54,353 bases of DNA from Mizuhopecten yessoensis (GCF_002113885.1 NW_018408800.1:398174-452526), one strand, 5' to 3'; numbered from the stretch's first letter, positions 28,730 through 53,263 are shown. Numbers and translations are program-made. Notes: generated by a model from the letters alone, not told the origin.

Positions 28730-30215
28730 ATTTGACCACGGGTTATTATACTGACTACGATCACCTTTACTTGGGTGAATATACGAAACTATGGGAAATA
28801 CAATTTGACTACGGGTTATTACCTGACTACTGACTACGAGCTATTATACTTGACTACTGACTACGAGCTATTATATTTGACTACATGACTACTAGTTATT
28901 ATACTCGACTACGTTACTACGAGTTATTATACTTGACTACGGGCTATTATACTTGACTATGTGACTACGAGCTATTATAATTGACTACGTGACTACGAGT
29001 TATTATACTCGACTACGTGACTACGAGTTATTATACTTGACTACGGGCTAATATATTTGACCACGTGACTACAAGTTATTATACTTCACTACGAACTATT
29101 ATACTTGACTAGTGACTACGAGTTATTATACTTGACTACTTGACTACGAATTATTATATTTAACTACGTGACAACGAGTTATTATACTTGATTACGTGAC
29201 TACGACTTAATATACTTGACTTCGAGTTATTATTTTTGACTACGAGTAATTATACTTGGCTACGTGGCTACGAGTTATTATAAATGACCACGTAACTACG
29301 AGTTATAATACTTGACTACGTGACTACGAGCTATTATACTTGACTACGTGGCTACGAGTTATTATACTTGACAATTTGAATACGAGTTATCATACTTGAC
29401 TACGTGACAACGAGTTATAATACTTGACTACGTGGCTACGAGTTATTATACTTGGCAATTTGACTACGAGATATTATACTTGACTACGTGACTACGAGTT
29501 ATTATAATTGACCACGTAACTACGAGTTATTATACTTGACTACGTGACTACGAGTTATAATACTTGACTACGTGGCTACGAGTTATTATACTTGACAATT
29601 TGACTACGAGATATTATACTTGACTTCGTGGTTACGAGTTATTATAATTGACCACGTAACTACGAGTTATTATACTAGACTACGTGACTACGAGCTATTA
29701 TACTTGACTACGTGACTACGAGTTATAAGACTTGACTACGTGGCTACGAGTTATTATACTTGACAATTTGACTACGAGATATTATACTTGACTACGTGAC
29801 TACGAGTTATTATACTTGACAATTTGACTACGAGTTATTATACTTGACTACGAGTTATTATACTTGACTACGAGTTATTATACTTGGCTTCGTGGTTACG
29901 AGTTATTATAATTGACCACGTAACTACGAGTTATTATACTAGACTACGTGACTACGAGCTATTATACTTGACTACGTGACTACGAGTTATAATACTTGAC
30001 TACGTGGCTACGAGTTATTATACTTGACTACTTGACTACGAGTTATTATACTTGACTACGTGACTAAGAGTTATTATACCTGACTACGTGACTACGAGTG
30101 ATTATACTTGACTACGAGCTATTATACTTGACTACGAGCTATTATACTTTACTACGTGACTACGAGTTATTATACTTGACTACGTGACTACGAGTTATTA
30201 TACTTGACTACGGGT
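28730..30215. repeat. Satellite with mixed 21/29-bp units GACTACGAGTTATTATACTT(GACTACGT)
   Basis: Dozens of visible tandem copies. Confidence 0.95.
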
Positions 30216-30280
30216 GTCTTGACTTGACTACTGGTGGATATACGTAAGAACGGGTGACTTTATTTGACTACGGATGTCTT

Positions 30281-30815
30281 TACTTGACAATGGGTAAACA
30301 TATGAAACTACAGGTAAGTATCCTTGACAATGGGTGAACATATGAAACTACAGGTAAGTATATTTGACAATGGGTGAACATATGAAACTACAGGTATGTA
30401 TACTTGACAATGGGTGAACATATGAAACTACAGGTAAGTATACTGGACAATGGGTGAACATATAAAACTACAGGTAAATATACTTGACAATGGGTGAACA
30501 TATAAAACTACAGGTAAGTATACTTGACAATGGGTGAACACATGAAACTACAGGTAAGTATACTTGACATCGAGTGAACATATGAAACTACAGGTAAGTA
30601 TACTTGACAATGGGTGAACATATAAAACTACAGGTAAATATAATTGACAATGGGTGAACATATGAAACTACAGGTAAGTATACTTGACAATGGGTGAATA
30701 CATGAAACTACAGGTACGTATACTTGACATCGAGTGAACATATGAAACTACAGGTAAGTATACTGGACAATGGGTGAACATATGAAACTACAGGTTAGTA
30801 TACTTGACATCCGGT
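30281..30815. repeat. 40-bp tandem repeat (~13 units) TACTTGACAATGGGTGAACATATGAAACTACAGGTAAGTA
   Basis: tatgaaacta at 30301, 30341, 30381 and onward. Confidence 0.95.
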
Positions 30816-30828
30816 GACCACTGTATAA

Positions 30829-30975
30829 TACTTGACTACGAGTGACTTTACTTGACTATGAGTGACTTTACTTGACTATGAGTGACTAGACTATGAGTGA
30901 CTTCACTTGACTATGAGTGACTTTACTTGACTATGAGTGACTTTACTTGACTATGAGTGACTATATGTGACTACG
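30829..30975. repeat. 20-bp tandem repeat TACTTGACTATGAGTGACTT
   Basis: About 7 tandem copies. Confidence 0.9.
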
Positions 30976-33145: not shown

Positions 33146-34112
33146 TCAATTAAACTTCGGGACTTCGGATAGCCGGTACATGAAAAACCAGCTTTGGTAG
33201 GCGGAACTGTAATTACACGGCAAAGCTTGCGCCATTTGCTCATTAAAGTGGACTTCCGATATCGCACCTGTCACGTGGCTCACACACAACGTCTGCGCAC
33301 TGTCATGGAATTCAAACATGAGAGCTCCCGTTTTAGAGGTCGGAGAGGTCGTCTGAAATTTCCACTTTCCCGGGATCACATTTTTAGTTTCATCACACTT
33401 TCTCCTTTTCAGGAAATGTGTGGAATCCGAAATAAATACACAATAATCATCAAACTTAAATTCGCCTTTCTCTGAAAACGTAAAAGAGTTTTCAGGTATT
33501 ATTCTATATTTAAAACATGCATATGTTATCCCAATGTAATGATCATCTAGGACAGCAAGACAGGCTAAAGTTTTCCCGTTGGTTATCTCCCCATAGAAGG
33601 CGGCGTCGATAGGGGGAACCTTCTGTTCCGGAAGTACGTTTTTAAGGTACCAGTGGAATGGTTTACAGTGCAATGACTTAAGAAAGTTTTTCTGTGACAT
33701 AATAGCATTGTTGTCTATTTGGGGGAAATTCTGCGTTCGTCCAGCAGTAACTCTATAGAAGGTATCTTTATATTCATCCAGCCATATTTCCGCTACCCTC
33801 ATCAGATTTTTCAGTATGACTGTATCTCGATCGGCGCCACCAAAACTGTAACTCTGGACGCCTAATTTAAACAGATGTCCCACTTTGGAACATGGAACTG
33901 TCAACACTCTCCCAGCACACAACCAGTTTTTGAATGACAAATCAAAGTGTTCCCCTCCCCAAATGTCAAGTCCCTCGTCGAAGCCCCCGATCCGAAAGAA
34001 GTGGTCCCTTCGTACGGCGATGGCGTTACCCACCAGCACGGGGGTAACAAATGGTTCCGTTTTAGACTTCAATGCTTGTTCAACGAAGCCCGGTACTTCG
34101 AACCACGCATAC
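33146..34112 (-). CDS. GALNT: GALNT copy 1 exon 3 (Gal/GalNAc-T motif + ricin-like lectin)
   Basis: tttcag| acceptor; DIWGGEHFDLSFKNW, PCSKVGH; stop TGA. Confidence 0.92.
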
Positions 34113-36651
34113 CTGAAATGACAAATGAATGAAAATGAAATCTGAAGTGAAGAAATATTACTGTCTTAACATGTGTACACCATTTAGATTTATCCACGAT
34201 TATATCTACTTATATTAGGGACTGACCTGGCCCCATATTCATTAAACCGAATTCATACTCAAGCATGGATTTTGTGCTCAAGACAACTGTTTTGTAACTT
34301 ACTAAATTATTGTAACACAGAACAAAGTCCAGTAAAAACATTGAAAACAGTATTTGGTTTTTCGTCTATCCAATATTCTTCCAAAATCATCAACGAAATT
34401 GATCCCGGAGAGAAGAATTCNNNNNNNNNNNNNNNNNNNNNNNNNNNNNNNNNNNNNNNNNNNNNNNNNNNNNNNNNNNNNNNNNNNNNNNNNNNNNNNN
34501 NNNNNNNNNNNNNNNNNNNNNNNNNNNNNNNNNNNNNNNNNNNNNNNNNNNNNNNNNNNNNNNNNNNNNNNNNNNNNNNNNNNNNNNNNNNNNNNNNNNN
34601 NNNNNNNNNNNNNNNNNNNNNNNNNNNNNNNNNNNNNNNNNNNNNNNNNNNNNNNNNNNNNNNNNNNCCAGCGCGTGTTACACTCCATGTGAGCGTCAAA
34701 GAACACCAACACGTCACCGGTGGCATTGCGGGCCCCATTCATCCTCGACCTGACCAGTCCGGCCCTCTGGCGGTTCCGGATCACCCTGGCTTTTGGCACC
34801 AGGGACAAATACATGTCTAACTCGTCCTTTAGGTACGTCATAGTGCTGAAGTCGTCTACGAGGATCACTTCCTTCAGGTTTTCTTCTGGGGACCTGTCTA
34901 TGACGCTGTGGACGGTCCGGAGCAAAGTGGACAGCGCCTCGTTGTGGAAGATGGTCACTACGGATACAGTGAGTGATGTATCATAGAGAAAATTTGTTTT
35001 GTGACATTCCGGATTTCTATTATCAGGAACAGGACGTCGTACAGACAACCCGTCACCGGCCGACACGTTGTACTTGAATTTGCTAGTGTCGACCATTCCT
35101 CTGTGACGAGCGAGGATGGATTGGAGAGTGTGCTCCAGTTTCTTCGTGTATTTCTCATCCTCAATTGCACCTAATCTAAATCAAATAAAACGTTACTTAT
35201 ATTATGTAAGCGACATAGATAACAGAAATATTGAAATTAATTTAAACGGACTTTGCCTCAAATATATTGTTACATGTTTCAATTAACCCCAGAAAAAATG
35301 GCAATGGATTAAAATAAATGAACATATCAAACACACGTAACATATGTTAAGAGGTACTTGTCAAATGGACCATAAAACAACACGATGGCCTAACTATCGA
35401 GCATTCTGGCAGTGGTTCCAATTATTTTAATCACACTATCAAAATTTCGATTTTGATCAGTCTTGCTTTTTTTTCAACACAAAGGAGAAGATACACCATA
35501 TAATACTGATTCTGATTTAATGTTAGCGTAGAATGGGTTTGACCAGAATTATTGAAAGTATATGGATTCTAAAGATAAGCTCTGTACGGATTCCTGTCCC
35601 ACTGTCCTCTGCTGTTTCGTGTATACAGTAACCTCCCCGAAATGTCGTTTTTGATTAAACTGTAGCCCAGTGAGGCACTGACCAAACTAGCCCAGTGAGG
35701 CACTGACCAAACTGTAGCCCAGTGAGGTACTGACCAAACTGTAGCCCAGTGAGGCACTGACCAAACTGTAGCCCAGTGAGGTACTGACCAAACTGTAGCC
35801 CAGTGAGGCACTGACCAAACTGTAGCCCAGTGAGGCACTGACCAAACTAGCCCTGTGAGGCACTGACCAAACTGTAGCCCAGTGAGGCACTGACCAAACT
35901 GTAGCCCAGTGAGGCACTGACCATTCCGTTGACTCGGTAGTTCAATCGGTTAGAGCAACAACATAACAATCTCAGGTCATCAGTTGGAATCCTAGTCTAG
36001 CCCTGCTGATTTTTTTTTTTAAACTCAGAACACTGTTGTTTACATTTTATTCCATTAAACTTTAATATTTTTCATAACGTCCGACAAGATGTGATTTTCT
36101 TATCAGAAATTATTTATCACAGCTGTAATAATGCCAGAAAAAATCAGTTTTCGTGTCATATTGCAAACTATTCCATGCAATAACTAATTGTCAAAAGTTG
36201 CACTCGACGCACACGTATTTGATTTACACATTGTATCAAAATTTGTGCCCATGGGCGTTCTTACTTTTGACGGGTACGGTATAAGAGAACATGCCATGGA
36301 GAGGTCAATAATCAGTGCGTTTTATAGTAAAACAACCTTATCAGTGGAGAGAAATGAATGTTAGTCTAAAGAGAAGTAGATAAATAGTAAAAAAAAACGC
36401 TAAATGAGTCGATTTTAAAGAACAGGGTCCTCAATCAGCATAAACATTACCATATCATCATACAGTGTAGTTGGTTTACACACGTACCTTGCTGCCACCA
36501 TGCGTTGCTGAGATATGATGTCGCGCTGGTCCTCCTCTAGCTGTCGAGGGGAATGTGGCAGAGATATCAGGATAATCCACGATTGTCCAACAATAAATAG
36601 AAGCATAACGGGTAGGAGCCCGCACCTCCTCGCACGGCCTGACCTTGCCAT
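33146..36651 (-). CDS. GALNT: Polypeptide GalNAc-transferase-like copy 1: join complement(36488..36651, 34668(gap)..35175, 33146..34112)
   Basis: N-terminal transmembrane segment, IFHNE, VDD, DAH, WGGE and VGH motifs, and a C-terminal ricin-like region. The end of exon 2 is lost in the N gap 34421-34667. An in-frame upstream ATG exists at 36702. Confidence 0.9.
34668..35175 (-). CDS. GALNT: GALNT copy 1 exon 2 (GT-A fold, DxH), truncated by gap
   Basis: SVVTIFHNEALSTLLRTVHS, ILVDD, FFDAHMEC. Confidence 0.92.
35657..35922. repeat. 27-bp minisatellite (~10 units) in GALNT copy 1 intron 1
   Basis: AAACTGTAGCCCAGTGAGGCACTGACC tandem, with some 25-bp variants. Confidence 0.95.
35927..36020 (+). 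mobile_element. Monomeric tRNA-derived SINE head (same family as the 51-bp arrays)
   Basis: cgttgac..gtagttcaatcggttagagc...aggtc...aatcctagtctagccctgctga followed by a T-run. Confidence 0.6.
36488..36651 (-). CDS. GALNT: GALNT copy 1 exon 1 (cytoplasmic tail + type II transmembrane anchor)
   Basis: MARSGRARRCGLLPVMLLFIVGQSWIILISL; AG|GTACGT donor, phase 2, matches exon 2. Confidence 0.85.
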
Positions 36652-36926
36652 CGTGTCACGTCCGTACGCACGTGGGATCAGGTACACGTGGCGAGGTGAC
36701 ATTGTATAGGGTGTCTGGTGTCGTCATCAACATATGTACCTTATTATTTATCCATAGCACAAGTCTGCAAAGAAATTATATTTTTCATTTTTTTTACCTT
36801 AATTGACGAATCAAATGAATGTTTGAACGTATCATACAACCACACTATAATAATTTCTCTCATCTGGATAAAACATGCATGTATAAATAAATATATGCAG
36901 ATAACTTCGTCCCTGGATAGATTGAA

Positions 36927-37148
36927 CACAGGGACGAGAATTTGTTACAGCTATATTTGGACGTAAACTAAGTTGTTCATGGTAATTTTACGCGTTATAG
37001 AGGTTTACGTCGACTTTTGGTAAAATGTCTCTCCCAATGATGATAACTTTTACCGAAAGTCGATCTAAACCCCTAAAACATGTAAAATTACTCTGAACAC
37101 CTTAGTTTAGGTCCAAATATAGCTTTAACAAATTATCAGGTCCTTGTG
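36927..37148. mobile_element. CACAGGGA-family MITE copy 2 (chimeric, at duplication junction)
   Basis: Same foldback structure; left flank matches copy 3, right flank matches copy 1. Confidence 0.88.
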
Positions 37149-37636
37149 ATTGAAACGAGAGGACCATAAGGCCCGTATAGCTAATCGCTCAACGTAATCG
37201 CTTCAGATGTTCTAAACAAATGCAGACTCAGTGTAATAGCATAAGCTTATTGGCCTTTCAGGAGGACAAACAAGAGGTCGAAGGGGCATGTATCGCCCTT
37301 GAAGAAAACCCTTATTTCCGCAATCGGGCCCGCCACTCCGCCCCAGGTTGAGAGGACACTCCCTTTCACAATAGACTTATTGACAATATAAACCGATTTC
37401 ATGAAAGGTGACTTAATATCAATTCATTTAATAATGGAAGGAACAAAGCTTTGGAGTTATACTCTGAATGATCCTCGTACTAATGGTAACAACCAACTGC
37501 CTTTTTCAGGATTGACTATGTAGCTTTGATGAATCATTTCCGAAAATAATACCATACCTTGCGGGACTTTCATGAAATCGATATATAAATATGAAATAGA
37601 TAAATTGTAATCAACAACAGTACGTGTGGTGAGGAT

Positions 37637-37980
37637 GAAAATTCAGCGGGGCTAGAGCGGGATTGGAACCCCGGACCTTAGTATGTTCTACTATCGCCCT
37701 TACCGACTGAGCTTTCGAACCCTGGACCTTAGTATGTTCTACTCCCGCCCTTACCGACTGAGCTTTCGAACCCTGGACCTTAGTATGTTTTACTCCCGCC
37801 CTTACCGACTGAGCTTTCGAACTCTGGACCTTAGTATGTTCTACTATCGCCCTTACCGACTGAGCTTTGGAACTCTAGACCTTAGTATGTTCTACTATCG
37901 CCCTTACCGACTGCGCTTTGGAACTCTGGACCTTAGTATGTTCTACTGTCGCCCTTACCGACTGAGCTTCCAGGTCAACG
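37637..37980 (-). repeat. tRNA-derived SINE head with 51-bp unit amplified 6 times
   Basis: Units start at 37683, 37734, 37785, 37836, 37887 and 37938. Confidence 0.8.
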
Positions 37981-38048
37981 AGAATGTCATCGCCCAGCTT
38001 TACTACAGCTTTATCCTAAACGAAATTAAAGGGAGCCTACTTTATATA

Positions 38049-39315
38049 AACAAGAGGCCCAATGGGGACCAATATACAGCTACAGTCAAAATATCTGTGT
38101 TCGATCCATTTGAATCTATTGAATGTTTTAAACATATGACACCTGTGACTTTGAAAGTTTATAGCCTTCCGTCCCGGCATACTTCTGGCTAAATATCATT
38201 ACCCTGGACCTTTTGAATAAACATATTTGATCCCTGTGACATTGAATATGAGCAAAGGTCATTCATTTGAACAAACTTGGTAGCCCTTCATCCCAGCATG
38301 TTACTGGCCAAATATCATCATCCAAGGCCTTTTGGTTATTGAGAAGAAGTTTTTTTAAAGGTTTTAAACATATTTGACCCCTGTGACCTTGAACAAGGTG
38401 AAGGTTATTAATTTGAATAAACTTGGTAGCCTTTCTTCCCAGCATGTTACTGGCCAAATATCATTAGCCTATGCCTCTTGGATATTAAGGAGAAGTTGTT
38501 TAAAGGTTTTAAACATATTTGACCCCTGTGACCTTGCAAATAGGTGAAGGTCGTTTGTTTGAACAAACTTGGTAGCCCTTTATCTGAGCATGATACTGGT
38601 CAAATATCATTGTTCTAGGACTCTTGGGTATTCAGGAGAAGTTGTGTAAAGGTTTTAAACATATTTGACCCCTGTGACTTTGAAAATAGATGAAGGTCAT
38701 TTGTTTGAACAAACTTGGTAGCCCTATATCCCAGCATGTTACTGGTCAAATATCATTATCCTAGGCTTCTTCGTTATTCAGAAGAAGTTGTTTAAAGATT
38801 TTAAACATATTTGATCCCTGTGACCTTGAATATAAGTCAAGGTCATTCATTTGAACAAACTCTGTAGCCCTCTATTACAGCATGCTACTGGTCAAATATC
38901 ATTATCCTAGGCTTCTTGGTTATTGAGAAGAAGTTGTTTAAATGTTTTAAACATATTTGACCCCTATGACCTTGAATATAAATAAAGGTCATTCATTTTA
39001 ACAAAATTTAGTAGCCCTTTATGCTAGCATGTTACTGGCTCAATATAATTATCCTAGGCCTCTTAATTTATTCAGAAGAAGCTGTTTAAAGTTTTTAACA
39101 TATTTGACCCCGGTGACCTTGAAAATAGCTGAAGGTGATTTATTTGAACAATCTTGGTAACCCTTCATCCCAGTTTGCTTCTGGCCAAATATCACCACCC
39201 TAGACCTTTCGGTTATTAAGAAGAAGTAGTTTAAAGTTAAATATTGACGACGGACGACGGACGCCGGACGCCGGACGCCGGACGCCGCACCACGGCATAA
39301 GTGCCAGGTGAGCTA
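38049..39315 (-). mobile_element. HINE with ~146-bp internal tandem repeats
   Basis: Termini aacaagaggccc...(ggacgcc)n..ccaggtgagctaaaa; core period 146 (38511, 38657, 38803). Absent at the paralogous site ~32360. Confidence 0.88.
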
Positions 39316-40109
39316 AAAAAGCAGTACAGCGAGACATGGATACTTAAACATAGATTCCAAAAATAATCTTCAGGTTATATTTTCTGTTATAACAGCAGTA
39401 TCCGGTGCGGATCTGTTCAAAGATTTACGGAAAAAAAATATAAAAAAATAACGAGTTCGGCTTTCCGTATTACTGTGTCATTTGTGTCGATTACAAGTCT
39501 TGTCTTCAACGTGTCAAATTATAGCCTCCTTTTCCTCTGAACCCCCTCTGCCATACACGTTCTTATGATATTTTTTTTTATGATCAACAGTCGGTAAGAG
39601 AACACTCGGATATGATGCTAAAGTAAGAGTAGCGTTAATATCAAGCGGACAGTGCTCATAAGAATACATTTACCGTCGTATGACATTGCCACTTTATAAC
39701 CCTACCACACATTTAGATATCATTCATACAGGCTATGAATGCTTTGAAAAGATTTTTGACGTCATCATCATTATGACGCCATTTTGATACTTGTTACGTT
39801 GGATACTACCGACTCGCCTTAGACAGACTGCTGTTCCATTCATCAAACAAGCATATATACGATCATTTTTTTAATTGAGCTAAATGCTGAATAATAGTAT
39901 TTGTAATTAGTGTTTTTTTAGGGAGAAGCGGAGGGGGAGGGGGTGGTGTTAAACAGATTTCAACGATTCAAAACCTGGTAAACATAACAACTCATTTGCT
40001 TTCAGTTGGCATTCATAGGCTCCCAATGCTCAAACATAACACACCCAAAATTCAATAAAAGTTCCAAGGTATTTTGACTTTATTTGAGATTTGAATAAAA
40101 CAAATTCAT

Positions 40110-41076
40110 TCAATTAAACTTCGGGACTTCGGAAAGCCGGTACATGAAATACCAGCTTTGATAGGCGGAACTGTAATTACACGGCAAAGCTTGCGCCATT
40201 TGCTCATTAAAATGGACCTCCGATATCGCACCTGTCACGTGGCTCACACACAACGTCTGCGCACTGTCATTGAATTCAAACATGAGAGCTCCTGTATTAG
40301 AGATCGGAGAGGTCGTCTGAAATTTCCACTTTCCCGGGATCACATTTTTAGTTTCATCACACTTTCTCCTTTTCAGGAAATGTGTGGAATCCGAAATAAA
40401 TACACAATAATCATCAAACTTAAATTCGCCTTTCTCTGAAAACGTAAAGGAATTTTCAGGTATTATTCTATATTTAAAACATGCATATGTTATCCCAATG
40501 TAATGATCATCTAGGACAGCAAGACAGGCTAAAGTTTTCCCGTTGGTTATCTCCCCATAGAAGGCGGCGTCGATAGGGGGAACCTTCTGTTCCGGAAGTA
40601 CGTTTTTAAGGTACCAGTGGAATGGTTTACAGTGCAATGACTTAAGAAAGTTTTTCTGTGACATAATAGCATTGTTGTCTATTTGGGGGAAATTCTGCGT
40701 TCGTCCAGCAGTAACTCTATAGAAGGTATCTTTATATTCATCCAGCCATATTTCCGCTACCCTCATCAGATTTTTCAGTATGACTGTATCTCGATCGGCG
40801 CCACCAAAACTGTAACTCTGGACGCCCATTTTAAACAGATGTCCCACTTTGGAACATGGAACTGTCAACACTCTCCCAGCACACAACCAGTTTTTGAATG
40901 ACAAATCAAAGTGTTCCCCTCCCCAAATGTCAAGTCCCTCGTCGAAGCCCCCGATCCGAAAGAAGTGGTCCCTTCGTACGGCGATGGCGTTACCCACCAG
41001 CACGGGGGTAACAAATGGTTCCGTTTTAGACTTCAATGCTTGTTCAACGAAGCCCGGTACTTCGAACCACGCATAC
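40110..41076 (-). CDS. GALNT: GALNT copy 2 exon 3
   Basis: Near-identical to 33146-34112. Confidence 0.92.
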
Positions 41077-44000
41077 CTGAAATGACAAATGAATGAAAAT
41101 GAAATCTGAAGTGAAGAAATATTACTGTCTTAACATGTGTACACCATTTAGATTTATCCACGATTATATCTACTTATATTAGGGACTGACCTGGCCCCAT
41201 ATTCATTAAACCGAACTCATACTCAAGCATGGATTTTGTGCTCAAGACAACTGTTTTGTAACTTACTAAAAGCATGTAACACAGAACAAAGTCCAGTAAA
41301 AACATTGAAAACAGTATTTGGTTTTTCGTCTATCCAATATACTTCCAAAATCATCAACGAAATTGATCCCGGAGAGAAGAATTCCAACTTGAGCACGAAA
41401 TCTGCTAGAGTATCACAAAAGCCCGACCGAGTTTGATATTATACACGCATGGACTTTGTTGAAGGAAAACACGATTGTTTGTTCCTCAACATTAACATAT
41501 TTCTCTGCGAAAAAGGCTATACATGTTTTATCATACCGAAATAAAACAATAACGTAACTAGAGCAGTAAATACGAGCATGCAGGTTGACACGCCATTGTT
41601 GTCGTTTGCTTCATCCACTCGGAATTAGATGTCACGGCTGTTGCCCATTTTCTTGGAGAGGCTCCGCAAATGGGAAATATGACCATTAAAACTCGAGCGC
41701 GTGAAGTTGATACGATGTTTTATTTCCCCGTCATGTAATCAGTATAATTCAATCATAAACGCTGTTATATAGATGAGGTATACTGATGTGTTTTCACTTA
41801 GTGTGGCCGAATAAGTTTGAGATTTCATCTGAGGCCTACCAAGTTTGGGAACATTTTATTTTATTTTATGACGCCGCTTGGGTTATTTTTAAGTACTGAC
41901 CGGAAGCCGACATAATGNACCAAGTTTGGGAACATGTAATTTTATGACGCCGCTTGGGTTATTTTTAAGTACTGACCGGAAACCGACATAATTTGATGTA
42001 CAGATACTCAAAAGAGGCCTAGCAAGTTTAATATTATATACATACTTGAACCCGAAACATTTTAAGAACTGATTTTCATATGACTCTGACAAAGTTTCTT
42101 TATTTTGTATCACCTCTGACGCCCGACCCGGATTTATAATTTATCTTAAATAACAACCTAAGATACGCACCTGAGGTCCCAACCGAATCCTCCACGAGAG
42201 CGACGATCACCATCTGGGTAACTGTAATAGTCCATTGTGTCAGCTTTAATGATGTCCACATCCGGCTGTAGAATTGCAGTGGGTTCGTCTTGAAGCGCGT
42301 GCAGGAGTGGCTCCAACCAGCGCGTGTTACACTCCATGTGGGCGTCAAAGAACACCAACACGTCACCGGTGGCATTGCGGGCCCCATTCATCCTCGACCT
42401 GACCAGTCCGGCCCTATGGCGGTTCCGGATCACCCTGGCTTTTGGCACCAGGGACAAATACATGTCTAACTCGTCCTTTAGATACGTCATAGTGCTGGAG
42501 TCGTCTACGAGGATCACTTCCTTCAGGTTTTCTTCTGGGGACCTGTCTATGACGCTGTGGACGGTCCGGAGCAAAGTGGACAGCGCCTCGTTGTGGAAGA
42601 TGGTCACTACGGATACAGTGAGTGATGTATCATAGAGAAAATTTGTTTTGTGACATTCCGGATTTCTATTATCAGGAACAGGACGTCGTACAGACAACCC
42701 GTCACCGGCCGACACGTTGTACTTGAATTTGCTAGTGTCGACCATTCCTCTGTGACGAGCGAGGATGGATTGGAGAGTGTGCTCCAGTTTCTTCGTGTAT
42801 TTCTCATCCTCAATTGCACCTAATCTAAATCAAATAAAACGTTACTTATATTATGTAAGCGACATAGATAACAGAAATATTGAAATTAATTTAAACGGAC
42901 TTTGCCTCAAATATATTGTTACATGTTTCAATTAACCCCAGAAAAAATGACAATGGATAAAAATAAATGAACATATCAAACACACGTAACATATGTTAAG
43001 AGTTACTTGTCAAATGGACCATAAAACAACATGATGGCCTAACTATCGAGCATTCTGGCAGTGGTTCCAATTATTTTAATCACACTATCAAAATTTCGAT
43101 TTTGATCAATCTTGCTTTTTTTTCAACACCAAGGAGAAGATACACTATATAATACTGATTCTGATTTAATGTTAGCGTAGAATGGGTTTGACCAGAATTA
43201 TTGAAAGTATATGGATTCTAAAGATAAGCTCTGTACGGATTCCTGTCCTCTGCTGTTTCGTGTATACAGTAACCTCCCCGAAATGTCGTTTCTGATTAAC
43301 CTGTAGCCGGCAGTGAGGCACTGACCAAACTGTAGCCCAGTGAGGTACTGACCAAACTGTAGCCCAGTGAGGCACTGACCAAACTGTAGCCCAGTGAGGC
43401 ACTGACCAAACTGTAGCCCAGTGAGGCACTGACCAAACTGTAGCCCAGTGAGGCACTGACCAAACTAGCCCAGTGAGGTACTGACCAAACTGTAGCCCAG
43501 TGAGGCACTGACCAAACTGTAGCCCAGTGAGGTACTGACCAAACTGTGGCCCAGTGAGGTCATGGGCTCAGAACATTGTGTTTACATTTTATTCCATTAA
43601 CCTTTAATATTTTTCATAAAGTCCGACAAGATGTGATTTTCTTATCAGAAATGATTTATCACAGCTGTAATCATGCCAGAAAAATAAATCAGTTTCAAAT
43701 GTGTAGTTACAAATTTTGGCAGTGGGTACGGGGAGTTCAAAAGCATATATTTATAGTGTGCGATTCTTTACACTAGCCATACAGCAAGCCATACTCATTA
43801 TACAAAAGGCAAATGACAACCAGTTATACCAGTGTGATATGAAATAGGCCGTTTATTCACAAAAAAAGAAGGTACAAACATGTATACTCACTGGGCGAGG
43901 GTTCCCACATCCTCGATACTCCCAAGAGTTACGCTCACTTTCGATCTCTGCTACGCTTATTTTCACTCTGTGCTGAGAGCGAAAGTGAGCGTAACCCCTT

Positions 44001-44559
44001 GATTATCTGAGGATGGGGTTCAAAGTGCCGTGTTATGTCATTGCGCATGCGTCAATAACTGTTTTCGTGTCATTTTGCAAACTATTCAATGCAATAACTA
44101 ATTGTCAAAAGTTGCACTCGACGCACACGTATTGGATTTACACATAGTATTAAAATCAGTGCCCATATATGGGCGTTCTTTAATTTTGACGTGTAAATTA
44201 AGAGGACACGTCATGGAGAGGTCAATAATCAGAGCGTGTTAAGAGTACCTTATCAGTGGAGAGGAATGAATTTTATTGTAAAGAGAAGTAGATAAATAGT
44301 AAAAACGCTAAATGAGTTGATTTTAAAGAACAGGGTCTTCAATCAGCATAAACAATACCATATCATCACACGGTATAGTTGGTAAACACACGTACCTTGC
44401 TGCCTCCATGCGTTGCTGAGATATGATGTCTCGCTGGTCCTCCTCTAGCTGTCGCGGGGAATGTGGCAGAGATATCAGGATAATCCACGATTGTCCAACA
44501 ATAAATAGAATCATAACGGGTAGGAGCCCGCACCTCCTCGCACGGCCGGACCTTGCCAT
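40110..44559 (-). CDS. GALNT: Polypeptide GalNAc-transferase-like copy 2, complete 594 aa: join complement(44396..44559, 42171..42824, 40110..41076)
   Basis: Three phase-2-compatible exons (164+654+967 nt) with GT-AG boundaries and all GT27 landmark motifs. Confidence 0.93.
42171..42824 (-). CDS. GALNT: GALNT copy 2 exon 2
   Basis: DAH, WLEPLL, RGGFGWDL; AG|GTGCGT donor. Confidence 0.92.
43300..43560. repeat. 27-bp minisatellite in GALNT copy 2 intron 1
   Basis: Paralog of 35657-35922. Confidence 0.95.
43908..44015. mobile_element. 108-bp foldback MITE
   Basis: CATCCTC..gttacgctcactttcg / cgaaagtgagcgtaac..GAGGATG; flanks gggttccca and gggttcaaa. Confidence 0.7.
44396..44559 (-). CDS. GALNT: GALNT copy 2 exon 1
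   Basis: Transmembrane anchor exon, AG|GTACGT donor. Confidence 0.85.
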
Positions 44560-44832
44560 CGTGTCACGTCCGTACGCACGTGGGATCAGGTACACGTGGC
44601 GAGGTGACATTGTATTGGCTTACTACACGGCGTGTCTGGTGTCGTCATCAATGTACCTTATTATTTATCCATAGCACAAGTCCGCAAAGAAATTTTGTTT
44701 TCTTTATTTTACCTTAATTGAGGAATCAAATGAATGTTTGAATTTATCGATCACACTATATGAATTTATCTGGATAAAACATACATGTATAAATACATGT
44801 ATGTATATAACTTCGTCCCTGGATAGATTGAA

Positions 44833-45043
44833 CACAGGGACGAACATTTTATACAGTTATTTTTTGGACCTTGACTAAGTTGTTCATGGTAATTTTACGC
44901 GTTTTAAAGGTTTACGTCGACTTTCGGTAAAAATGATAACTTTTACCGAAAGTCGATGTAAACCCCTAAAACGTGTAAAATTACTCTGAACACCTTAGTT
45001 TAGGTCAAATATAGTTGTAAACAAATATTCTCAGATCCCTGTG
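44833..45043. mobile_element. CACAGGGA-family MITE copy 3
   Basis: Same termini and arms. Confidence 0.88.
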
Positions 45044-45749
45044 GGTTTGAAAACAAAGTCGGGACGCTGTTTAGAAAAGCTATATATGATATTGGTTATA
45101 ATAAGTGTATTGTTTGCAATTTTTGTAATCGACTTCATCATTGTTCGATCAAGCCGTGTCGTATATCTACCAGATGGACGTTATCGACACCCGTGATATA
45201 TTTAAACCGATTTTTCTTTTCAGTCTTCTACCGATTCAAACTATCATAGTAAAGGTTATTACCGCATAAGTTCTATCTCAAATAAACAGTCCCCCTTTAC
45301 TTTTCCCCATTTGATGGAATGAAGAGTTTTTCCTCGCTTAGATTTTATTTTGTGTTTATTGGTGGAAAAACCATGAAAAAATCTATTTGACATTACCGTG
45401 CTTACAGACAATCAGACTGAACTATTGTTTATAACGAAATAACAGTTTTAACGCTGACAAGGAACTCCACAACTCTATAACACTGTCTATAAAGAAAGTC
45501 TTTATCTCCCCCGAAAGTCGTGTCAAAAATCATGGTTTATTGTAGACACCGGTTGATGCAAAATTCTCGTATAGCATCTCTAGTCAACAAATTAATAATT
45601 GCCCTTTGCAGTACATGCGTAAGGATTATCGAAGTCTGGATAAACGAGATTCTCCTATATATAAGTCGGTATAATTCTACTATATATCAGTATAGCTGTA
45701 ATTCTACTGTACATCTGATTAATTGTGGTGGAAATAAATTTAGTCAGTC

Positions 45750-46870
45750 GTCAACTGTATTGTACAAAAGACGATCCTATTGTACTGTACACACGTCGGT
45801 GTAACTGTATTGTACATAAGACGGTGTAATTGTACTGTACACACGCCGGTGTAATTTAACAGCCGGTATAACTTTACTGTACAGCAGCCGATCTAATTTT
45901 ACTGTACACACGCCGGTGTAATTTTACTGTACAAAAGACGGTGTAATCGTATTATACGCACGCCAGTGTAATTGTACTGTACACAAGACGGTGTAAGTAT
46001 ACTGTACACGCGCCGGTGTAATTGTACTGCACATAAGACGGTGTAATTGTATTATACACAAGCCAGTGTAATTTTACAGTCGATGTAATTGTACTGTACA
46101 CAAGTCGGTGTAATGCTGCTGTATATAAGATTGTGTAATTGTACTGTACATAAATCAGTGTAATTTTACTGTACATGAGTCAGTGTTATTGGACTGTACA
46201 TAAGTCGGTTTAATAGTATTGTACATAAGTCGGTGAAATTGTACTGTTCATAAGTCAGTGTAATTGTACTGTACAAATTACGGTGTTATTGTACAGTACA
46301 GAAATCGGCTAAATTGTACTGTTCAGAAGTCGGTTTTATTGGACAGTACACAAGTCAGTGTAATCTGACTGTACATAAGTCGGTGTAATTGTACTGAACA
46401 TAAGTCGGTGTAATTGTATTGTACAGAAGTCGTCGTAATTGTACTGTACACAAGTCTGTGTAATTGTACTGTACATAAGTCGGTGTAATTTTTACTGGTC
46501 ACATGTCGGTGTAATTGTAGTCTAGTGCTCTGGTGTTAACAAGAAAATTGAACTCCAGTGCACAAGCTTGTGGCTTGAATTCACATGCTTTTGTACAGAG
46601 TTCTTACGCTTGTGCACTTGGGTAAATTACAGTGCACACTGTCCAAGTTCACTACAAAGTGTACTAAAAACCAAGTTAGGTTTGCTCCCAATTGTAAGTC
46701 GGCGTAATTCTACTGTACACATATCGGTGTAATTTTCTATACATAAGTCGGTGTAACTTTTACTGTACAGATGTTGATGTAATGTTATTGTATGTAAACC
46801 GGTGTAATTTACTGAACAGAAGTCGTTGTAATTTCACTCTACATCGGAGTAATTAAACTGTACAAAAATC
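45750..46870. repeat. 25-bp satellite TACTGTACACAAGTCGGTGTAATTG, interrupted at ~46520-46695
   Basis: Tandem diverged copies. Confidence 0.92.
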
Positions 46871-46992
46871 AATGTATTTATTTGTCGACGTAAATACACT
46901 GTACATATAGCCAATTTAACTCTACTGTCAAAGTAAATAAACTGTTTATTCTTAAGTAATTTACTGTTAAGAAGGCAGTGTACCTATACTGT

Positions 46993-47079
46993 TAGTCTCG
47001 TTCAACCAGACGCTTGATCACTTGTTATTCTGTTCGGCATAGCTTGCGCAAGCAACAAGAGTCTGGTTGAACGAGACTA
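46993..47079. mobile_element. 87-bp MITE with 19-bp perfect TIRs and ~9-bp TSD
   Basis: TAGTCTCGTTCAACCAGAC...GTCTGGTTGAACGAGACTA; flanks ctatactgt and ttatactgt. Confidence 0.85.
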
Positions 47080-47178
47080 TTATACTGTATATCAGTCGAG
47101 TGTAATTCTATAGTGCCATAAATCGACTCTACGTAAGTTCTAGTCTCTAGCCTCGTTCAACGTAATTCCGGTCTATCA

Positions 47179-47292
47179 CGACTACCAACAATGCCATGTT
47201 CTTGATCACAAACACCACGACTACCCACAATGCCATGTTCTTTGTCACAAACACCACGACTACCCATAATGCAACGTTCATTTCCACAAACA
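47179..47292. repeat. 39-bp tandem repeat, 3 units
   Basis: cgactacc..aatgc at 47179, 47218 and 47257. Confidence 0.75.
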
Positions 47293-47400
47293 AACAACAG
47301 CAAAACATGTTAATGTATGTCGAAGTAAATTATTAGAAGACCAATAAAAATTCAAGATGAAATAACAGTAATTGTACAAAATGAATACATGAACAATTTT

Positions 47401-48355
47401 TTATACGAGTTTATACATGAAAAACCAATTCTGATAGGACGTTTCGAGGTAAGAACTCTTGTTGCAATTTATACCTTGTGCCATCTGTTCTTTGAAGTGG
47501 ACTTTCTGTATCACACCAGTGACATGTCCCACACAAAGTATACGTGCACTACCACTGATCTCGAAATGAAGACTTCCGACAATCGCGGCTGGGTCTTCGG
47601 TCACGAACGACCACTTTCCGGCAAAAACCCCACGTGTTTCATCACATGTGCTTATTTTCAAAAAACGATTCTCATTATCAACAAATACACACCTATCGTT
47701 ATATTTGAATTTACCATTTTTTGTAAATGTAAATGAATTAATGGGTAGAATTCTGTACTTAAAGCAATCGAATGTGATGCCTATGTAAAAATCATCCAAA
47801 ACAGTAAGACATCCCGTTGTCCTTACGTTTGTTATCTCCCCGTAGAAGGCGGCGTCGATAGGGGGCACTTTCTGTTCCGGCAGTACGTTCTGAAGATACC
47901 AACGGAAAGTCTTACAATTTAAAGACTTGATAAAATTCTTTTGTTTTCTAAGAGACGTCTGGTCCAGTACGGGAAAATTGGCATTTCGTGCCCTACGTAT
48001 TCTGTAGAAAACATCTTTATATTCGTCCATCCATATTTCCGCTACCCTCATCAGATTCTTTTGAATTATGGTATAGCGATCACCATCAAAACTGTAACTT
48101 TGGCCCTCCTTAAACAGATGTCCGACTTTGGAACATGGAACAGTTAACACTCTCCCCGCACACATCCAGTTCTTAAAGGACAGGTCGAAGTGTTCCCCTC
48201 CCCAGATATCAAGTCCCTCGTCGAAGCCCCCGATCCTGAAGAAGTGGTCCCTTCGTACGGCGATGGCGTTCCCCACTAGGACAGGAGTTATAAATGGCGT
48301 AGTTTTGGATGCTATGGCCAGTTCCAAGTACTCTGGTATCACAAACCACGAGTAT
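47401..48355 (-). CDS. GALNT: GALNT copy 3 exon 3
   Basis: ttacag| acceptor; WGGEHFD, VGHLFK; stop TAA. Confidence 0.92.
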
Positions 48356-51300
48356 CTGTAAGTTAGTAAAATTACAATATCATCTTTGGAACATGTTCGA
48401 TACAAGGTAAGAACTACGGTGAGAAAACTATACACAATGTATCAATTATGTATCAATTAAGGAAAAGGGTACTACTGCACCAGATATAATCGCAATGGAG
48501 ATTTCCACTTTTTTTAACTTGTGCGTGAATGATTTTTCTGCTTTGGAGTAACTTATATTGTCAAGTTATTTATCATTCAATGCTCATGTTTTCCCTCATA
48601 GGTTTTGCGGCCAATTGTTTGGACAATCGTTATGATGCTGACTGGATGCCAACACTGGTAAAGTGAAAGGTTTTGAGTTCATACCCGGCAGTTTGTCTGT
48701 CTTTTGGGGTTATTTTTTGTCTTTCTTTTTCTCCCTCTTTTTTTCTTTTCTCCCTATTTTCTGATCATTCAAATTTCGAACAGCTATATTTATTTCTGTA
48801 AAATGCATAGCAAAATATGATTTTGTTGCAATACTTCTATTGAAAAGGACTTCAAATATTACACAATAGTGAGTCAGTGCCAATTGCGATTTTCAATTTT
48901 TAGTTCACCTGGTCCGAAGGACCATAGTGAGCTGATGCCGTGGCGCAGCGTCCGTCGTCGTCGTCCATCGTCAACTTTTTCTTAAAAACCTATCTCCTCC
49001 TAAACGCCAAAGAGGATTTCAACCAAACTTAGTCTGAAGCATAACTAGGGGAGGGCAAACATTTCTTAAATAAATGAGGTTGGTTTGACCCATGCGGCCA
49101 GGGGGGCGGGGCCCTTAAGGAGAACTTAGCTTAATTTGCTTTAAAACGCATCCCCTCCGAAACGCCAGAGAGGATTTCAACCAAATTCAGTCTGAAGCAT
49201 CACTAAGTGAAGGGCAATCATTTCTTAAATAAATGAGGTTGGTTCGATCCCTGAGGCCAGGGGGCCGGGCCCTGAAGGGGAACTTAGCTAAATTTGCCAG
49301 AGAAGATTTCAACCAAATTTGCTCTGACACTTCATTGGGGGAGAGCAATCATTTCCTAAATAAATGAGACTGGTTCGACCCCTGGGGCTCAAAAGAGGAA
49401 AATTATCTAATATTTTGCTTTAGAACGCTAATATCCCCTAATTGACTGAGTTGATTGTACAAAATATGGTCAAAAACATTATTGAGAAAGAACAAACTTT
49501 TCTTAATTGAATGAGGTTGATTTGACCCCTGCGGTCCTAAGAAATGGTACAGCTAGATTATCATTTGCTATGGTGTAGTTTTCATAAATTGTTTCTAGGT
49601 TTATAAAAGCTTATAGTTGAATGAAAATTGAAGTATTGTCTAATTACACCCTGTAATATAACATATCATTTATTTCAAAATCTGTTAACATGGCAACTCA
49701 ATGGAGGCCTCTGATTAGTTGAAAGTCAGATAGTGTGGTACAAGTTGGGTTAGAACATAGATGGTGTCTGGTTTTGGGGAAATTTCATATAAAGATGTAC
49801 TAATGCATTCAGTTGTAATGACTTAAATATAAAACCAGGTGAGCGATACAGGTCCAATGGACCTCTTGTTTTTGGTACCCTTCACCTTAATGTGTATGAT
49901 GCTCACCTCATATCCCAGCCGAAGCCACCCCGGTACCTTCGTCCGTCGTCGTAAGCGTAATACTCCATTGATTTAGCGGCTATAATATCTACTACTGGTT
50001 GTAGAATCGCGGTGGGTTCGACCTTGAGCACATGCAGGAGTGGCTCCAGCCAGCGCGTGTTACACTCCATGTGAGCGTCAAAGAACACCAACACGTCACC
50101 GGTGGCATTGCGGGCCCCATTCATCCTCGACCTGACCAGTCCGGCCCTCTGGCGGTTCCGGATCACCCTGGCTTTTGGCACCAGGGACAAATACATGTCT
50201 AACTCGTCCTTTAGGTACGTCATAGTGCTGAAGTCGTCTACGAGGATCACTCCCTTCAGGTTTTCTTCTGGGGACCTGTCTATGACGCTGTGGACGGTCC
50301 GGAGCAAAGTGGACAGCGCCTCGTTGTGGAAGATGATCACAACAGACACAGCGTATGTGGTGTCGATGGGGTATGTGATATTGTGACATTCCGAAAGTCT
50401 GGTGTCCGGAACTGAACGTCGGACAGATATGGAGTTCCCTGCAGATACGTTGTAGTTGTGGTTTACGGTATCGCTCACGTTCTGGTGACGGGCGAGGATG
50501 GATTGGAGAGTCCTTTCCAGTTTTGACGTGTATTTTTCGTCCTCCATGACACTTAGTCTGAAACATAAACGGAAATTTTAATGCAGTCTGATTCACATAA
50601 TATATCATAAATTACTCATTATATTCGTATACATGATCGATATCAAAAGTACAGCGGCTCCCAATACAGTATCAAAAGTTCATTAGCTTATTCTCTATTA
50701 GGCAAAACAAAAAATTGTGTTTCAGGTATCCCGACCTACCCTGGATTTTACTGCTGCCCCCTTTTTTTACTTTGAGAATTCTCTCACATTATACATACAA
50801 TGTAAAGCAACAAAAGGAAGTTTATTTTTTTGGCTAAGAGTGACTTCCCTTGTAAACGCATTCCTCTCTCAATGGTGCGACCCATAAGACACTGGTGAGC
50901 TCTCATTTTAATGATGTGCATTTATAATTCTTAGCTAAACATATTCGTTAGGAGAAAGATTGGCAATGTAAAGGTCCCGACTCCGAAGAATACCCACCAC
51001 CCCCGTTTTTAGCTCACCTGGCCCGAAGTGCCAAGTGAGCTTCTGGCATGGTGCGGGTCCGTCGTTCGTCAGTCCCGAATAACCAATAGGTCCAGGGTGA
51101 CGATATTTGGCCAGACGAATGTTGGGATAAAGGGTTATCAAGTTTGTTCAAATAAATAAATGAGCTTTGCCCATATTAAAGGTCACAGGGGTCAATTGTC
51201 TTACAAACCTTTAAACAACTTCTTCTGTAAAACTGAAAGGTCCAGGACGACGATATTTGGCCAGAGGGATTTGGGATGAAGGGTTATCAAGTTTATCAAA

Positions 51301-53263
51301 TGAATGACCTTTGCCCATATGCAAGGTCACAAGGGTCAATTGTCTTAAAAACCTTTAAACGACTTCTTTTGAATAACCAAAAGCTCCAGGGTGAGGATAT
51401 TTGGCCAGTAGCATGCGGGGATGAAGAGTTTGTTCAAACGAATGACCTTCGCCCATATTCAAGGTCACATGGTTCAATTGTCTTAAACCTTAAAACGACT
51501 TCTTCTGAGTTACCAAAAGCTGCGGGGTGATGATATTTAGCCGGTTGCATGCCTGGATGAAGGGCAACCAAGTTTGTTCAAGTGAATGGCCTTTGCCCAT
51601 ATTCAAGGTCACATGGGTCGATTGTCTTAAAAACCTTTAAACGACTTCTTCTGTATAACCAAGAGGTCCAGGGTGATGATATTTGGCCAGAAGGATGTTG
51701 ACATGAAGGGCTACCAAGATTGTTCAAATGAAAGACATCTGCCCATATTCAAGGTCACATGGGTCAAATATGTTGAAATCTTTAAACTACTTCTTCTGAA
51801 TAACTAAAGCATACAGGCTGATTGCTTGTTGATGTGAATGACCTTGACATTCTTTCTTGGTAACATCTGGTCCATAGTGCATGAACCTTTAAAAGTCATC
51901 TTCTTAAAAAAAGGTATAAGGTGGTGATATTTGGCAAGTTGCATTCTAGGAAGAAGGGCTATGAAGTTTGTTCATGTTTGACTTTTTAAGGTCACAGGGG
52001 TTAAATATGTTAAAAACTTTCAAACAACTTCTGCTGAATAACCAAAAGGACCAGGGTGATGATATTAGGTCAGTAGTATGGTGGGATGAAGGGCTACCAT
52101 GTTTGTTCAAATGAGTAAACTTCACTCATATTCAAGGTCATAGGGATCAATTGTCTAAAAACTTCTAAATAACCAAAAGGACCAGGATGATATTCGGTCA
52201 GTAGCATGCTGGGATAAGGGGCTACCAGGTTTGATGATATTGGCCAGACACATGTTGGCAGAAAGGGCTCCAAATCGATGACCTTGACCTTTAATCAAGG
52301 TCACAGGGGTCAAATATGTTAGAATATTTAAATAACTTTGTCCGATAATAATGAGGCCCAAAATGTTGATACTTGACCAGAAGCATGCTTGGATGTAGGC
52401 CTACCAAGTTTGTTCAAATGAATGACCTTCACCCTTATTCAAAGACATTTAAAATCTTTAAACAACTTCTTTTGAATAACCAAAAGTTGCATGATGATGA
52501 TATCTGGCAAGTTACTTGCTAGGATGAAGGACTACCAAGTTTGTTAAAATGAATTACCTTGACTTATATTCAAGGTTAGAGGGGTCAAATTTGTCAACAT
52601 TTTTTATACCACTCCTGAGAAACCATAAGGCCCAGAATGTTGATATTTGGCCAGAAGCATGCTTGGGTGAAGGGCTATCAAGCTTTTTCATTTGAATGAC
52701 CTTGACCTACTTTCAAGGTTACATTGCCTATTAGGACCTAAGCATTAATTAATTTACAACTGTAGCAAGATCATATTAAAAGTTTTCGGGACTTAGATCA
52801 GCTTTCGGTAAAATGCTACATTGCATATACATCGGTTTAGGTAAAACATAGTTAAACTGTCACAAATTATCAGGTCCCTGTGGTTTGCCCGTTTATTATT
52901 TGAAGAGTTTGTATTGCTACTTTCTTGATGTTATCATGTTCTTTCCTAAATGCCTTTTCATGAACCCATATTTGGTCAATCCAATATCTTTTCGTCTGAC
53001 CTTAGCTGTACCCTGGAAATACTAATCCCCTCACCCCTTTATAGCTATTACGGAAGTGTAGAGACAAGTATCAACAACAATTGTATGACTTACTTGTACG
53101 CCACTCCACGTTGTTGCTGCGCGAGCTCAAGCCGTTCCGTCTCCAGCTGCCGGAAGGATTGGGGTAAGGACATAAGAATGATCCAGGTTTGTCCTAGAAT
53201 AAACAGCAGCAGGGCGGGCAGGAGTCTCCGGAACCCACACTTCGCTCGCCCTGATTTCGCCAT
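47401..53263 (-). CDS. GALNT: Polypeptide GalNAc-transferase-like copy 3 (diverged paralog), 591 aa: join complement(53094..53263, 49907..50557, 47401..48355)
   Basis: Same intron positions and phases (170+651+955 nt). Exon 1 encodes MAKSGRAKCGFRRLLPALLLFILGQTWIILMSL and is missing from the ORF track. Confidence 0.92.
48461..49886. mobile_element. TTAA-flanked Kolobok-like non-autonomous DNA element with nested HINE
   Basis: TTAA-GGAAAAGGGTAC...GTACCCTTCACC-TTAA imperfect TIRs. Confidence 0.6.
48897..49872 (+). mobile_element. Complete HINE in GALNT copy 3 intron 2
   Basis: ttttagttcacctgg, (gtc)n, internal repeats (ggatttcaaccaaa), ccaggtgagcga and hairpin aggtcc-aat-ggacct followed by cttgtt. 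Confidence 0.85.
49907..50557 (-). CDS. GALNT: GALNT copy 3 exon 2
   Basis: tttcag| acceptor; DAH; AG|GTGAGC donor. Confidence 0.92.
51006..52740 (+). mobile_element. HINE with ~146-bp core repeats (same family as 38049-39315, opposite orientation)
   Basis: tttttagctcacctgg start; repeated caaggtcacaggggtcaa / gatgaagggctaccaagtttgttcaaatgaatgacc. Confidence 0.85.
52780..52882. mobile_element. Partial CACAGGGA-family MITE
   Basis: tagatc..ctttcggtaaaa and terminal caaattatcaggtccctgtg. Confidence 0.55.
53094..53263 (-). CDS. GALNT: GALNT copy 3 exon 1 (transmembrane anchor)
   Basis: Homologous to exon 1 of copies 1 and 2; AA|GTAAGT donor, phase 2. Confidence 0.85.

Follow-up and report, generated by a model that had tools for sequence, protein, structure and literature searches.

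What sugar would be transferred by the GALNT-like enzymes encoded in tandem in the scallop Mizuhopecten yessoensis, whose sequences depart from the family pattern where the donor is bound? The genes lie at positions 33146-53263 of a 54,353-nucleotide stretch of DNA (GCF_002113885.1 NW_018408800.1:398174-452526), which we call the window and number from its first letter. An original prediction, made from the sequence alone, had read them as three intact copies of an uncharacterised GT27 subfamily with a rewired donor-sugar pocket, and as a candidate mollusc O-glycosylation system. Comparison with other family members indicates that the two complete genes, A and B, represent a genuine and apparently uncharacterised variant of GT27 in which most contacts with the donor are preserved, and that the real change is confined to the loop at residues 307-310, around the N-acetyl group.

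A six-frame scan of the window for motifs, combined with gene models read from splice sites, found DAH, TPVLVGNAI, WGGEHFD and CSKVGHLFK three times each, all on the minus strand, in agreement with what had been claimed. Their first bases lie, in that order, at 50079, 48288, 48204 and 48135 in copy A, at 42346, 41009, 40925 and 40856 in copy B, and at 34697, 34045, 33961 and 33892 in copy C; the span 33146-53263 is bounded exactly by the stop codon of C and the ATG that opens A. Gene A encodes 591 residues and gene B 594, the latter being the 594-residue protein named at the outset, and both have three coding exons, an open frame and GT..AG introns. In gene A, coding exon 1 (53094-53263), with its ATG and a GT donor, supplies the cytoplasmic tail, the transmembrane helix and the start of the stem; exon 2 (49907-50557) supplies the N-terminal half of the GT-A domain, with the equivalents of R201 and R208 and the DAH motif (D217-H219); and exon 3 (47401-48355) carries TPVLVGNAI, WGGEHFD and GHLFK, together with a lectin domain of the ricin type that is degenerate. 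The exons of gene B, also on the minus strand, encode the tail and transmembrane helix (exon 1, 44396-44559), DAH (exon 2, 42171-42824), and the remaining motifs with the lectin domain (exon 3, 40110-41076). Database proteins of the same lengths exist for A (P0001, 591 residues) and B (P0005, 594 residues); P0001, which its source names as Mizuhopecten yessoensis, is 100% identical to the exon-3 query.

Residues are numbered below as in GalNAc-T2 (T2; GalNAc, N-acetylgalactosamine), by way of alignments with entries of the Protein Data Bank (PDB), and residue counts compare 82 rows of the branch that holds the scallop genes (the xGC branch) with 118 other GT27 rows of the FastTree set described later. 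The catalytic framework is largely kept. D176, R201, R208, D224, W331, G332, E334 and H359 are invariant in all 82 branch rows, H226 (81/82) and G308 (79/82) are nearly so, and position 367 is Tyr or Phe throughout (82/82). R208, G308, G332 and E334 make the specificity hydrogen bonds to the sugar (PMC13071866), and W331, E334, H359 and Y367 are listed among the catalytic-site residues (PMC4388629 Table 2). In gene A the Mn ligands are D217, H219 and H353, and the WGGE motif is W325-G-G-E328. The pocket for Pro-x-Pro recognition, formed in T2 by F280, W282 and F361 (PMC4432651), is represented in gene A by Y275, W277 and F355; across the branch, position 280 is Tyr or Phe in 79 of 82 rows and position 361 is Phe or Tyr in 80.

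The T2 positions that are changed in the scallop copies are A307, G309, L310, N335, L336, E337, R362 and H365; E334 (the Glu of WGGE) and G308 (the first of the two AGG glycines) are retained. The donor loop A307-L310, AGGL in T2, reads VGNA in all scallop copies. In the branch as a whole, position 307 is Val, Ile or Gln in 74 of 82 rows, position 309 is something other than Gly in 80 (Cys 60, Asn 12, Ser 6) and position 310 is Ala in 69; only the scallop group has Asn at 309. L310 belongs, with I253, W282, H359 and F361, to a hydrophobic pocket (PMC13071866), and genes A and B combine L310A with I253V, a position that is Ile in 31 of the 82 rows. The distinctive feature of the branch is a coupled A307V/G309N(C)/L310A switch at the N-acetyl pocket. 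Altered AGG, WGGEN and HxFR contacts had been proposed, and G309, N335 and R362 do differ; G308 and E334 are kept. The positions N335 and R362 vary in active enzymes of solved structure too, T10 having Gln at N335 and T4 and T12 having Pro at R362. What is left of the rewired pocket is the loop 307-310, the Mn ligands, the residues facing the sugar hydroxyls (R208, G308, G332, E334 and W331) and those of the Pro pocket all being retained.

An alignment-based AlphaFold2 model, which replaced a single-sequence version with a predicted local distance difference test score (pLDDT) of 33.6, reached a pLDDT of 91.7 and a predicted template modelling score of 0.86. An N-terminal hydrophobic helix (residues 14-32) followed by a long stem helix gives a type II membrane layout. 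The best fold matches are GalNAc-T2 (Foldseek E 7e-49; VIA Z about 49, with root-mean-square deviations of 3.7-9.1 over about 480 aligned residues in the VIA matches), and the model aligns to about residue 590 on GalNAc-T structures, taking in both the GT-A domain and the beta-trefoil. PF00535 is above its cut-off and PF02709 scores 24.5 bits against a cut-off of 23, whereas the Pfam Ricin profile scores 12-15 bits against a cut-off of 29, and 96 for an oyster T13-like control. In the first (alpha) lectin repeat, CLT (A) or CLA (B) stands where CLD is expected, so that the Asp458 position is Thr or Ala, and by inspection the beta and gamma repeats have no CLD either. The lectin domain is therefore modelled as folded but degenerate, without the sugar-binding Asp. 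The active Toxoplasma GalNAc-T3 likewise has a lectin domain without the Asp-His-Asn motif, which gives no boost of activity (PMC11074326); it is, however, the lowest-scoring GT27 structure against gene A and has a second-metal site of its own.

In overall build, A and B resemble T1, T2 and T13 (CAZy GT27, EC 2.4.1.41), with which they share the type II layout, the GT-A domain plus beta-trefoil, the DxH motif with its second His, R208, W331, G332, E334, Y367 and the Pro pocket, at about 30-34% identity in the fold matches. They differ in VGNA for AGGL, N335H, R362K, the loss of H365 and of the lectin Asp, the presence of two coding introns only, and a rejected grouping with T1/T13/pgant5. The GT60 polypeptide alpha-GlcNAc-transferases, described as having no ricin-like domain (PMC8724618), differ from the scallop proteins, which have a beta-trefoil and give no match to PF11397 at E up to 1.

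Purifying selection acts on genes A and B, which are not decaying. Their overall synonymous divergence (dS) is 0.96 and their nonsynonymous divergence (dN) 0.20, a dN/dS of about 0.2. In the exon-3 motif block (codons 293-362) dS is 0.75 and dN 0.038, and for codons 321-360 dN is 0.03 at a dS of 0.97; the unusual exon-3 motifs, lying in diverged DNA with low dN, are thus under strong constraint. Codons of about 132-231 (50035-50334 in A; about 42302-42601 in B; minus strand) behave differently. Here the two genes are nearly identical, with 6 differing bases between codons 132 and 231, dS is 0.08 within codons 128-232 as against 1.48 outside, and the identity between paralogs (0.96) exceeds that between orthologs (0.86-0.88), which together mark the tract as gene conversion. 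It takes in DAH and the nucleotide-binding half, so the shared DAH is not independent evidence. The argument that sharing by a diverged paralog speaks against decay consequently holds for the exon-3 motifs, not for DAH. We note that the Ylistrum pair also looks homogenised in this region (0.94), the Pecten (0.84) and Argopecten (0.81) pairs less so.

A and B are also expressed and spliced. Contigs from sequencing runs of three studies join exons at the predicted splice sites; among the indexed runs listed with matches, none is on record as RNA. The joint across intron 1 of gene B (42824-44396) is seen in X1, X2 and X3, that between its exons 2 and 3 in X1, X2, X3 and X5, and that across intron 2 of gene A (48355-49907) in X1 and X2 contigs and one raw X23 read. 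The sole support for intron 1 of gene A comes from an X2 contig whose loose end at 50557, 8 letters long, is the reverse complement of the last 8 bases of exon 1. Of the two raw RNA runs, X23 gives thin cover of the exons and X22 almost none. Transcripts of B and C are not confidently separable, and their tissue is unlabelled. Lack of expression together with a dN/dS near 1, which had been named as evidence against the proposal, is accordingly not what is observed.

To place the genes, trees of the catalytic domain were inferred after deletion of the motif columns, without the vertebrate Y-subfamily (T8/9/18/19) and with T15 and T20 not knowingly included. FastTree was run on 202 rows, 12 fragmentary rows, rows below 300 residues and near-duplicate canonical rows having been dropped, and IQ-TREE on 65 chosen rows under LG+G4. 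In the IQ-TREE tree the scallop genes group at 100/99 inside a mollusc WGGEH clade (99/98), which is nested in a mollusc-annelid-brachiopod clade (100/99); the wider xGC clade has 100/97 with 26 rows and 97/93 with 32 rows, one IGG row included. Forcing the scallop genes to group with T1/T13/pgant5, the one grouping covered by the approximately unbiased (AU) test, lowers the log-likelihood by 118.8 and is rejected (p-AU 2.6e-7). The scallop genes thus appear as a supported lophotrochozoan GT27 branch, apart from the GALNT groups sampled, and nesting in that characterised clade, which the original prediction had named as part of a refutation, is disfavoured. A single clade of all xGC-motif proteins is not secure. 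FastTree support is 0.45 for the 82 xGC rows alone and 0.987 only when two AGG/IGG rows are added, an intronless WGGED group falls outside the clade in IQ-TREE, near the long bacterial outgroup, and a nemertean VGC protein lies among canonical rows.

The switch is widely distributed. Orthologs in Pecten, Ylistrum and Argopecten have identical motifs; abalone, limpet and Gigantopelta have VGCAI or QGSCI with WGGEH; and Ridgeia, Owenia, Dimorphilus, Capitella and Lingula have VGCA or VVGCA with WGGEN. Among 30 representatives checked, many of them unnamed, the named branch members are molluscs, annelids or a brachiopod, and the named sister row of the branch is a nemertean. The branch is not confined to molluscs, the group for which it was first proposed, since annelid and brachiopod members carry VGCA. 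The proposal of a conserved, uncharacterised subfamily filed under generic GALNT names is borne out by the orthologs, the expression and the database labels. In abalone the branch is expanded (P0016-P0019, P0021, P0035), with a further loop change to QGSC. The nemertean Tubulanus protein P0230, with VGCV and HIWK, groups among canonical rows, which suggests that the loop change arose more than once. A bacterial origin was considered: 39 GTDB loci show 24-32% identity in long matches and at most 54% in short segments, and none is a close member of the branch. Several of these loci (L043, L046, L049, L050 and L051), GT27-like and mostly from Planctomycetes, carry DAH or DSH, P.L[VI]GC[AC] and WG.ED at about 27-30% identity; as some Planctomycete proteins have a similar GCA loop, the loop may have changed in either direction. 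ESM Atlas returned generic GALNT clusters only. The Biomphalaria glabrata ppGalNAc-T, the one mollusc GT27 that a passage of a 2015 review names as cloned, is a T2-like enzyme of group Ib (PMC6272458); the T2-like gene of the scallop is a separate one (L030). In titles and the openings of abstracts, which cover few subscription papers and do not establish absence from print, we found no description of the branch.

In the same genome at least 34 GT27 matches are present. Some are ordinary AGG-type GALNT exons, and no fewer than 10 genes or copies have a loop other than AGGL that is broadly of the kind seen here. On C5549, at about 377400-381950 (L004, L031-L032; P0010, 618 residues), lies a fourth gene with VGNAI; its coding sequence is split into three exons, with the last intron again at the R|Y position. 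Five GT27 genes (L005-L009; C4067, C5553 and C1154), all intronless and reading IVGCAF and WGGED, have orthologs in other scallops and relatives in abalone, and their position in the trees is unstable. Two tandem multi-exon genes on C1616, at about 165900-180400 and 196700-203500 (L034-L037), have VGAA in place of AGGL, and the second has GHIER where others have GHVFR. In this they resemble the vertebrate Y-subfamily (T9/T18/T19), a group described as confined to vertebrates; the C1616 pair keeps Trp, not Tyr.

How should the altered loop be read? We give about an even chance to the reading that A and B are active, lectin-independent polypeptide alpha-GalNAc-transferases. Each would be a Golgi enzyme that carries out Mn-dependent, retaining transfer from a uridine diphosphate (UDP)-sugar to Ser or Thr of proline-containing proteins, and the sugar, galacto-configured and most likely alpha-GalNAc, would be placed near prolines. 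The A307V/G309N/L310A switch would repack rather than remove the N-acetyl pocket, one side chain being added and another shortened, the degenerate lectin domain would give no long-range guidance, and the branch would serve special substrates beside the ordinary AGGLF-type GALNTs of the same genome. From the protein sequences we infer that the Golgi location, the catalytic activity, the alpha (retaining) linkage and the donor of A and B are likely as given here. Several observations count against such a conventional role. In the 118 other GT27 rows, position 307 is Ala in 111, position 309 Gly in 115 and position 310 Leu in 111, and the solved wild-type enzymes T1, T2, T3, T4, T7, T10, T12 and PGANT9 all have AGGL. 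The I253A/L310A double mutant of T2 prefers a bumped donor by more than 100:1 over UDP-GalNAc (PMC13591258), and the vertebrate Y-subfamily is reported to have little or no proven in vitro activity (PMC8472655, PMC9587226).

Because the changes cluster at C2 of the sugar and spare the named hydrogen-bond contacts, the main rival is a polypeptide transferase whose donor is altered at C2, being either UDP-Gal or GalNAc with a larger N-acyl group, a reading that we hold to be rather unlikely. With UDP-Gal, the Asn or Cys side chain at 309 would fill the place of the acetamide and the product would be Gal-O-Ser/Thr; with an extended donor, the larger group would fit a natural L310A 'hole'. We know of no N-acyl-extended UDP-GalNAc in molluscs, which speaks against the second form, and of no enzyme that starts the Gal-Thr of the tubeworm Riftia. 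That unit, a galactosylated threonine reported in cuticle collagen (PMC10141479), lends the UDP-Gal form some weight, as another vent tubeworm, Ridgeia, has a branch member (P0030), but Riftia itself is absent among the matches and its Gal-Thr link may be of either anomer. The mollusc O-glycans that have been reviewed start with GalNAc (PMC6272458). Favouring a C2-altered donor, all branch-wide changes fall at 307-310 and 253, positions that line the pocket, and the switch is common to molluscs, annelids and a brachiopod. In addition, L310A and I253A are the gatekeeper mutations of bump-and-hole engineering, which in T2 (I253A/L310A; PDB 6E7I, 6NQT) move the enzyme toward bulky N-acyl donors (PMC7276986). 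The scallop enzymes share the Ala at the L310 gatekeeper; unlike the engineered protein, however, they are natural, have Val rather than Ala at I253 and gain bulk at G309 and A307, so any 'hole' in them is only putative. Moreover, side-chain volume is roughly traded (Gly plus Leu for Asn or Cys plus Ala), so that the pocket may be unchanged, and I253, still Ile in part of the branch, is merely trimmed to Val.

In the vertebrate Y-subfamily (GalNAc-T8/T9/T18/T19), which is defined by Tyr in place of W331, Cys replaces the second Gly of AGG. A further possibility, in our judgement improbable, is that A and B are weakly active or non-catalytic modulators like GalNAc-T18, whose activity in vitro is unproven and for which a chaperone-like role has been proposed (PMC9587226). 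The Y-subfamily enzymes are, like the scallop proteins, atypical GT27 members of unclear activity (PMC8472655, PMC9587226), and some orthologs of A and B carry the automatic name 'inactive ... like protein 5'. Such names are merely similarity labels, however, and the scallop proteins keep W331 and F361; residue 331 is Trp, not Tyr, in 82 of 82 branch rows, the catalytic residues are invariant or nearly so, and dN is low in codons 321-360. No YGGE-type motif is present among the new proteins of the 150 representatives listed and no Y-subfamily entry among the names of 17 region matches, and the sole YG match in 80 metagenome loci is an unrelated frame.

Transfer of alpha-HexNAc or Gal to an existing O-glycan (cores 5, 7, 8 or 9) instead of to peptide is decidedly improbable. 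Gastropods make alpha-GlcNAc1-6 (core 9) and alpha-Gal1-3 (core 8) linkages that need a retaining transferase and for which no enzyme is identified (PMC3705362), and the branch has gastropod members; but the peptide proline pocket is conserved, core 9 needs GlcNAc, yet the listed GalNAc hydrogen-bond residues are kept, and no Conus sequence is found among the matches listed. Decaying duplicates or an assembly artefact are barely credible. Copy C, with its gap and its probable allelic relation to B, would suit that reading, but the frames of A and B are open and spliced, selection on them is purifying, and their orthologs in Pecten, Ylistrum and Argopecten carry the very same motifs. Decay is thereby refuted for A and B, and doubt attaches to C alone.

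Copy C (36651-33146, minus strand) has coding exons at 36488-36651 (5 differences from B in 164 bases), 34421-35175 and 33146-34112 (13 differences in 967 bases). Its frame is not callable as intact because a 247-base assembly gap of N (34421-34667) covers the end of exon 2, so the open frames expected of all copies are seen in A and B only. In total 22 of 1639 compared coding bases differ between B and C (dS 0.034), and identity across the aligned introns and flanks is 87-97%. Exon 3 appears as one unbroken contig (913 or 921 bases) in the intron-covering runs X15 and X19; of the differing sites that it spans, the X15 contig agrees with B at 5 and with C at the rest, and B and C letters are also mixed in an X3 contig. 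Three other scallop species have one A-type and one B-type protein each. This near-identity, the single contigs of mixed letters and the one B-type protein per scallop suggest that C is probably the second haplotype of B, assembled in tandem. Three motif sets are present, then, and there may be two genes rather than three at the locus. A private recent duplication of B is possible, since contigs drop rare variants and a flank identity of 87% is divergent for an allele.

Elsewhere in the window, an epsin-like multi-exon gene (5153-15115, plus strand) has an ENTH domain (PF01417, E 5e-53) and DPW-rich and NPF-ending frames. A single open frame of 938 codons (25226-28042, minus strand), which we take to be TRIM/NHL-like, has a coiled-coil-like start, a long middle part that is acidic and of low complexity, and a C-terminal NHL repeat match (E 1.7e-5). 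Tandem or high-copy repeat arrays lie at 12112-12593, 13440-14562, 28800-30963, 38218-39236, 45663-46519 and 51077-52723; those at 38.2-39.2 kb and 51-52.7 kb are mutually inverted relatives and are very abundant in other runs.

To our knowledge, the GT27 enzymes of animals have all been regarded as transferring GalNAc from UDP-GalNAc, and their AGGL loop as invariant. The branch described here, which is old and is found in molluscs, annelids and a brachiopod, swaps that loop in a coupled way, and does so at a residue that chemists mutate for donor preference. If the donor is plain UDP-GalNAc, the AGGL loop would not be required for its use, and the branch would still count as a subfamily without a name of its own, whose members are at present wrongly labelled T1-, T13- or T20-like. 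If the donor is switched at C2, the branch would start protein O-glycosylation by a route distinct from that of mucin O-GalNAc, and might account for the Gal-O-Thr in the cuticle collagen of annelids. A second donor chemistry, if true, would supply an enzyme for invertebrate linkages that are so far unexplained, and glyco-engineering would gain a natural scaffold.

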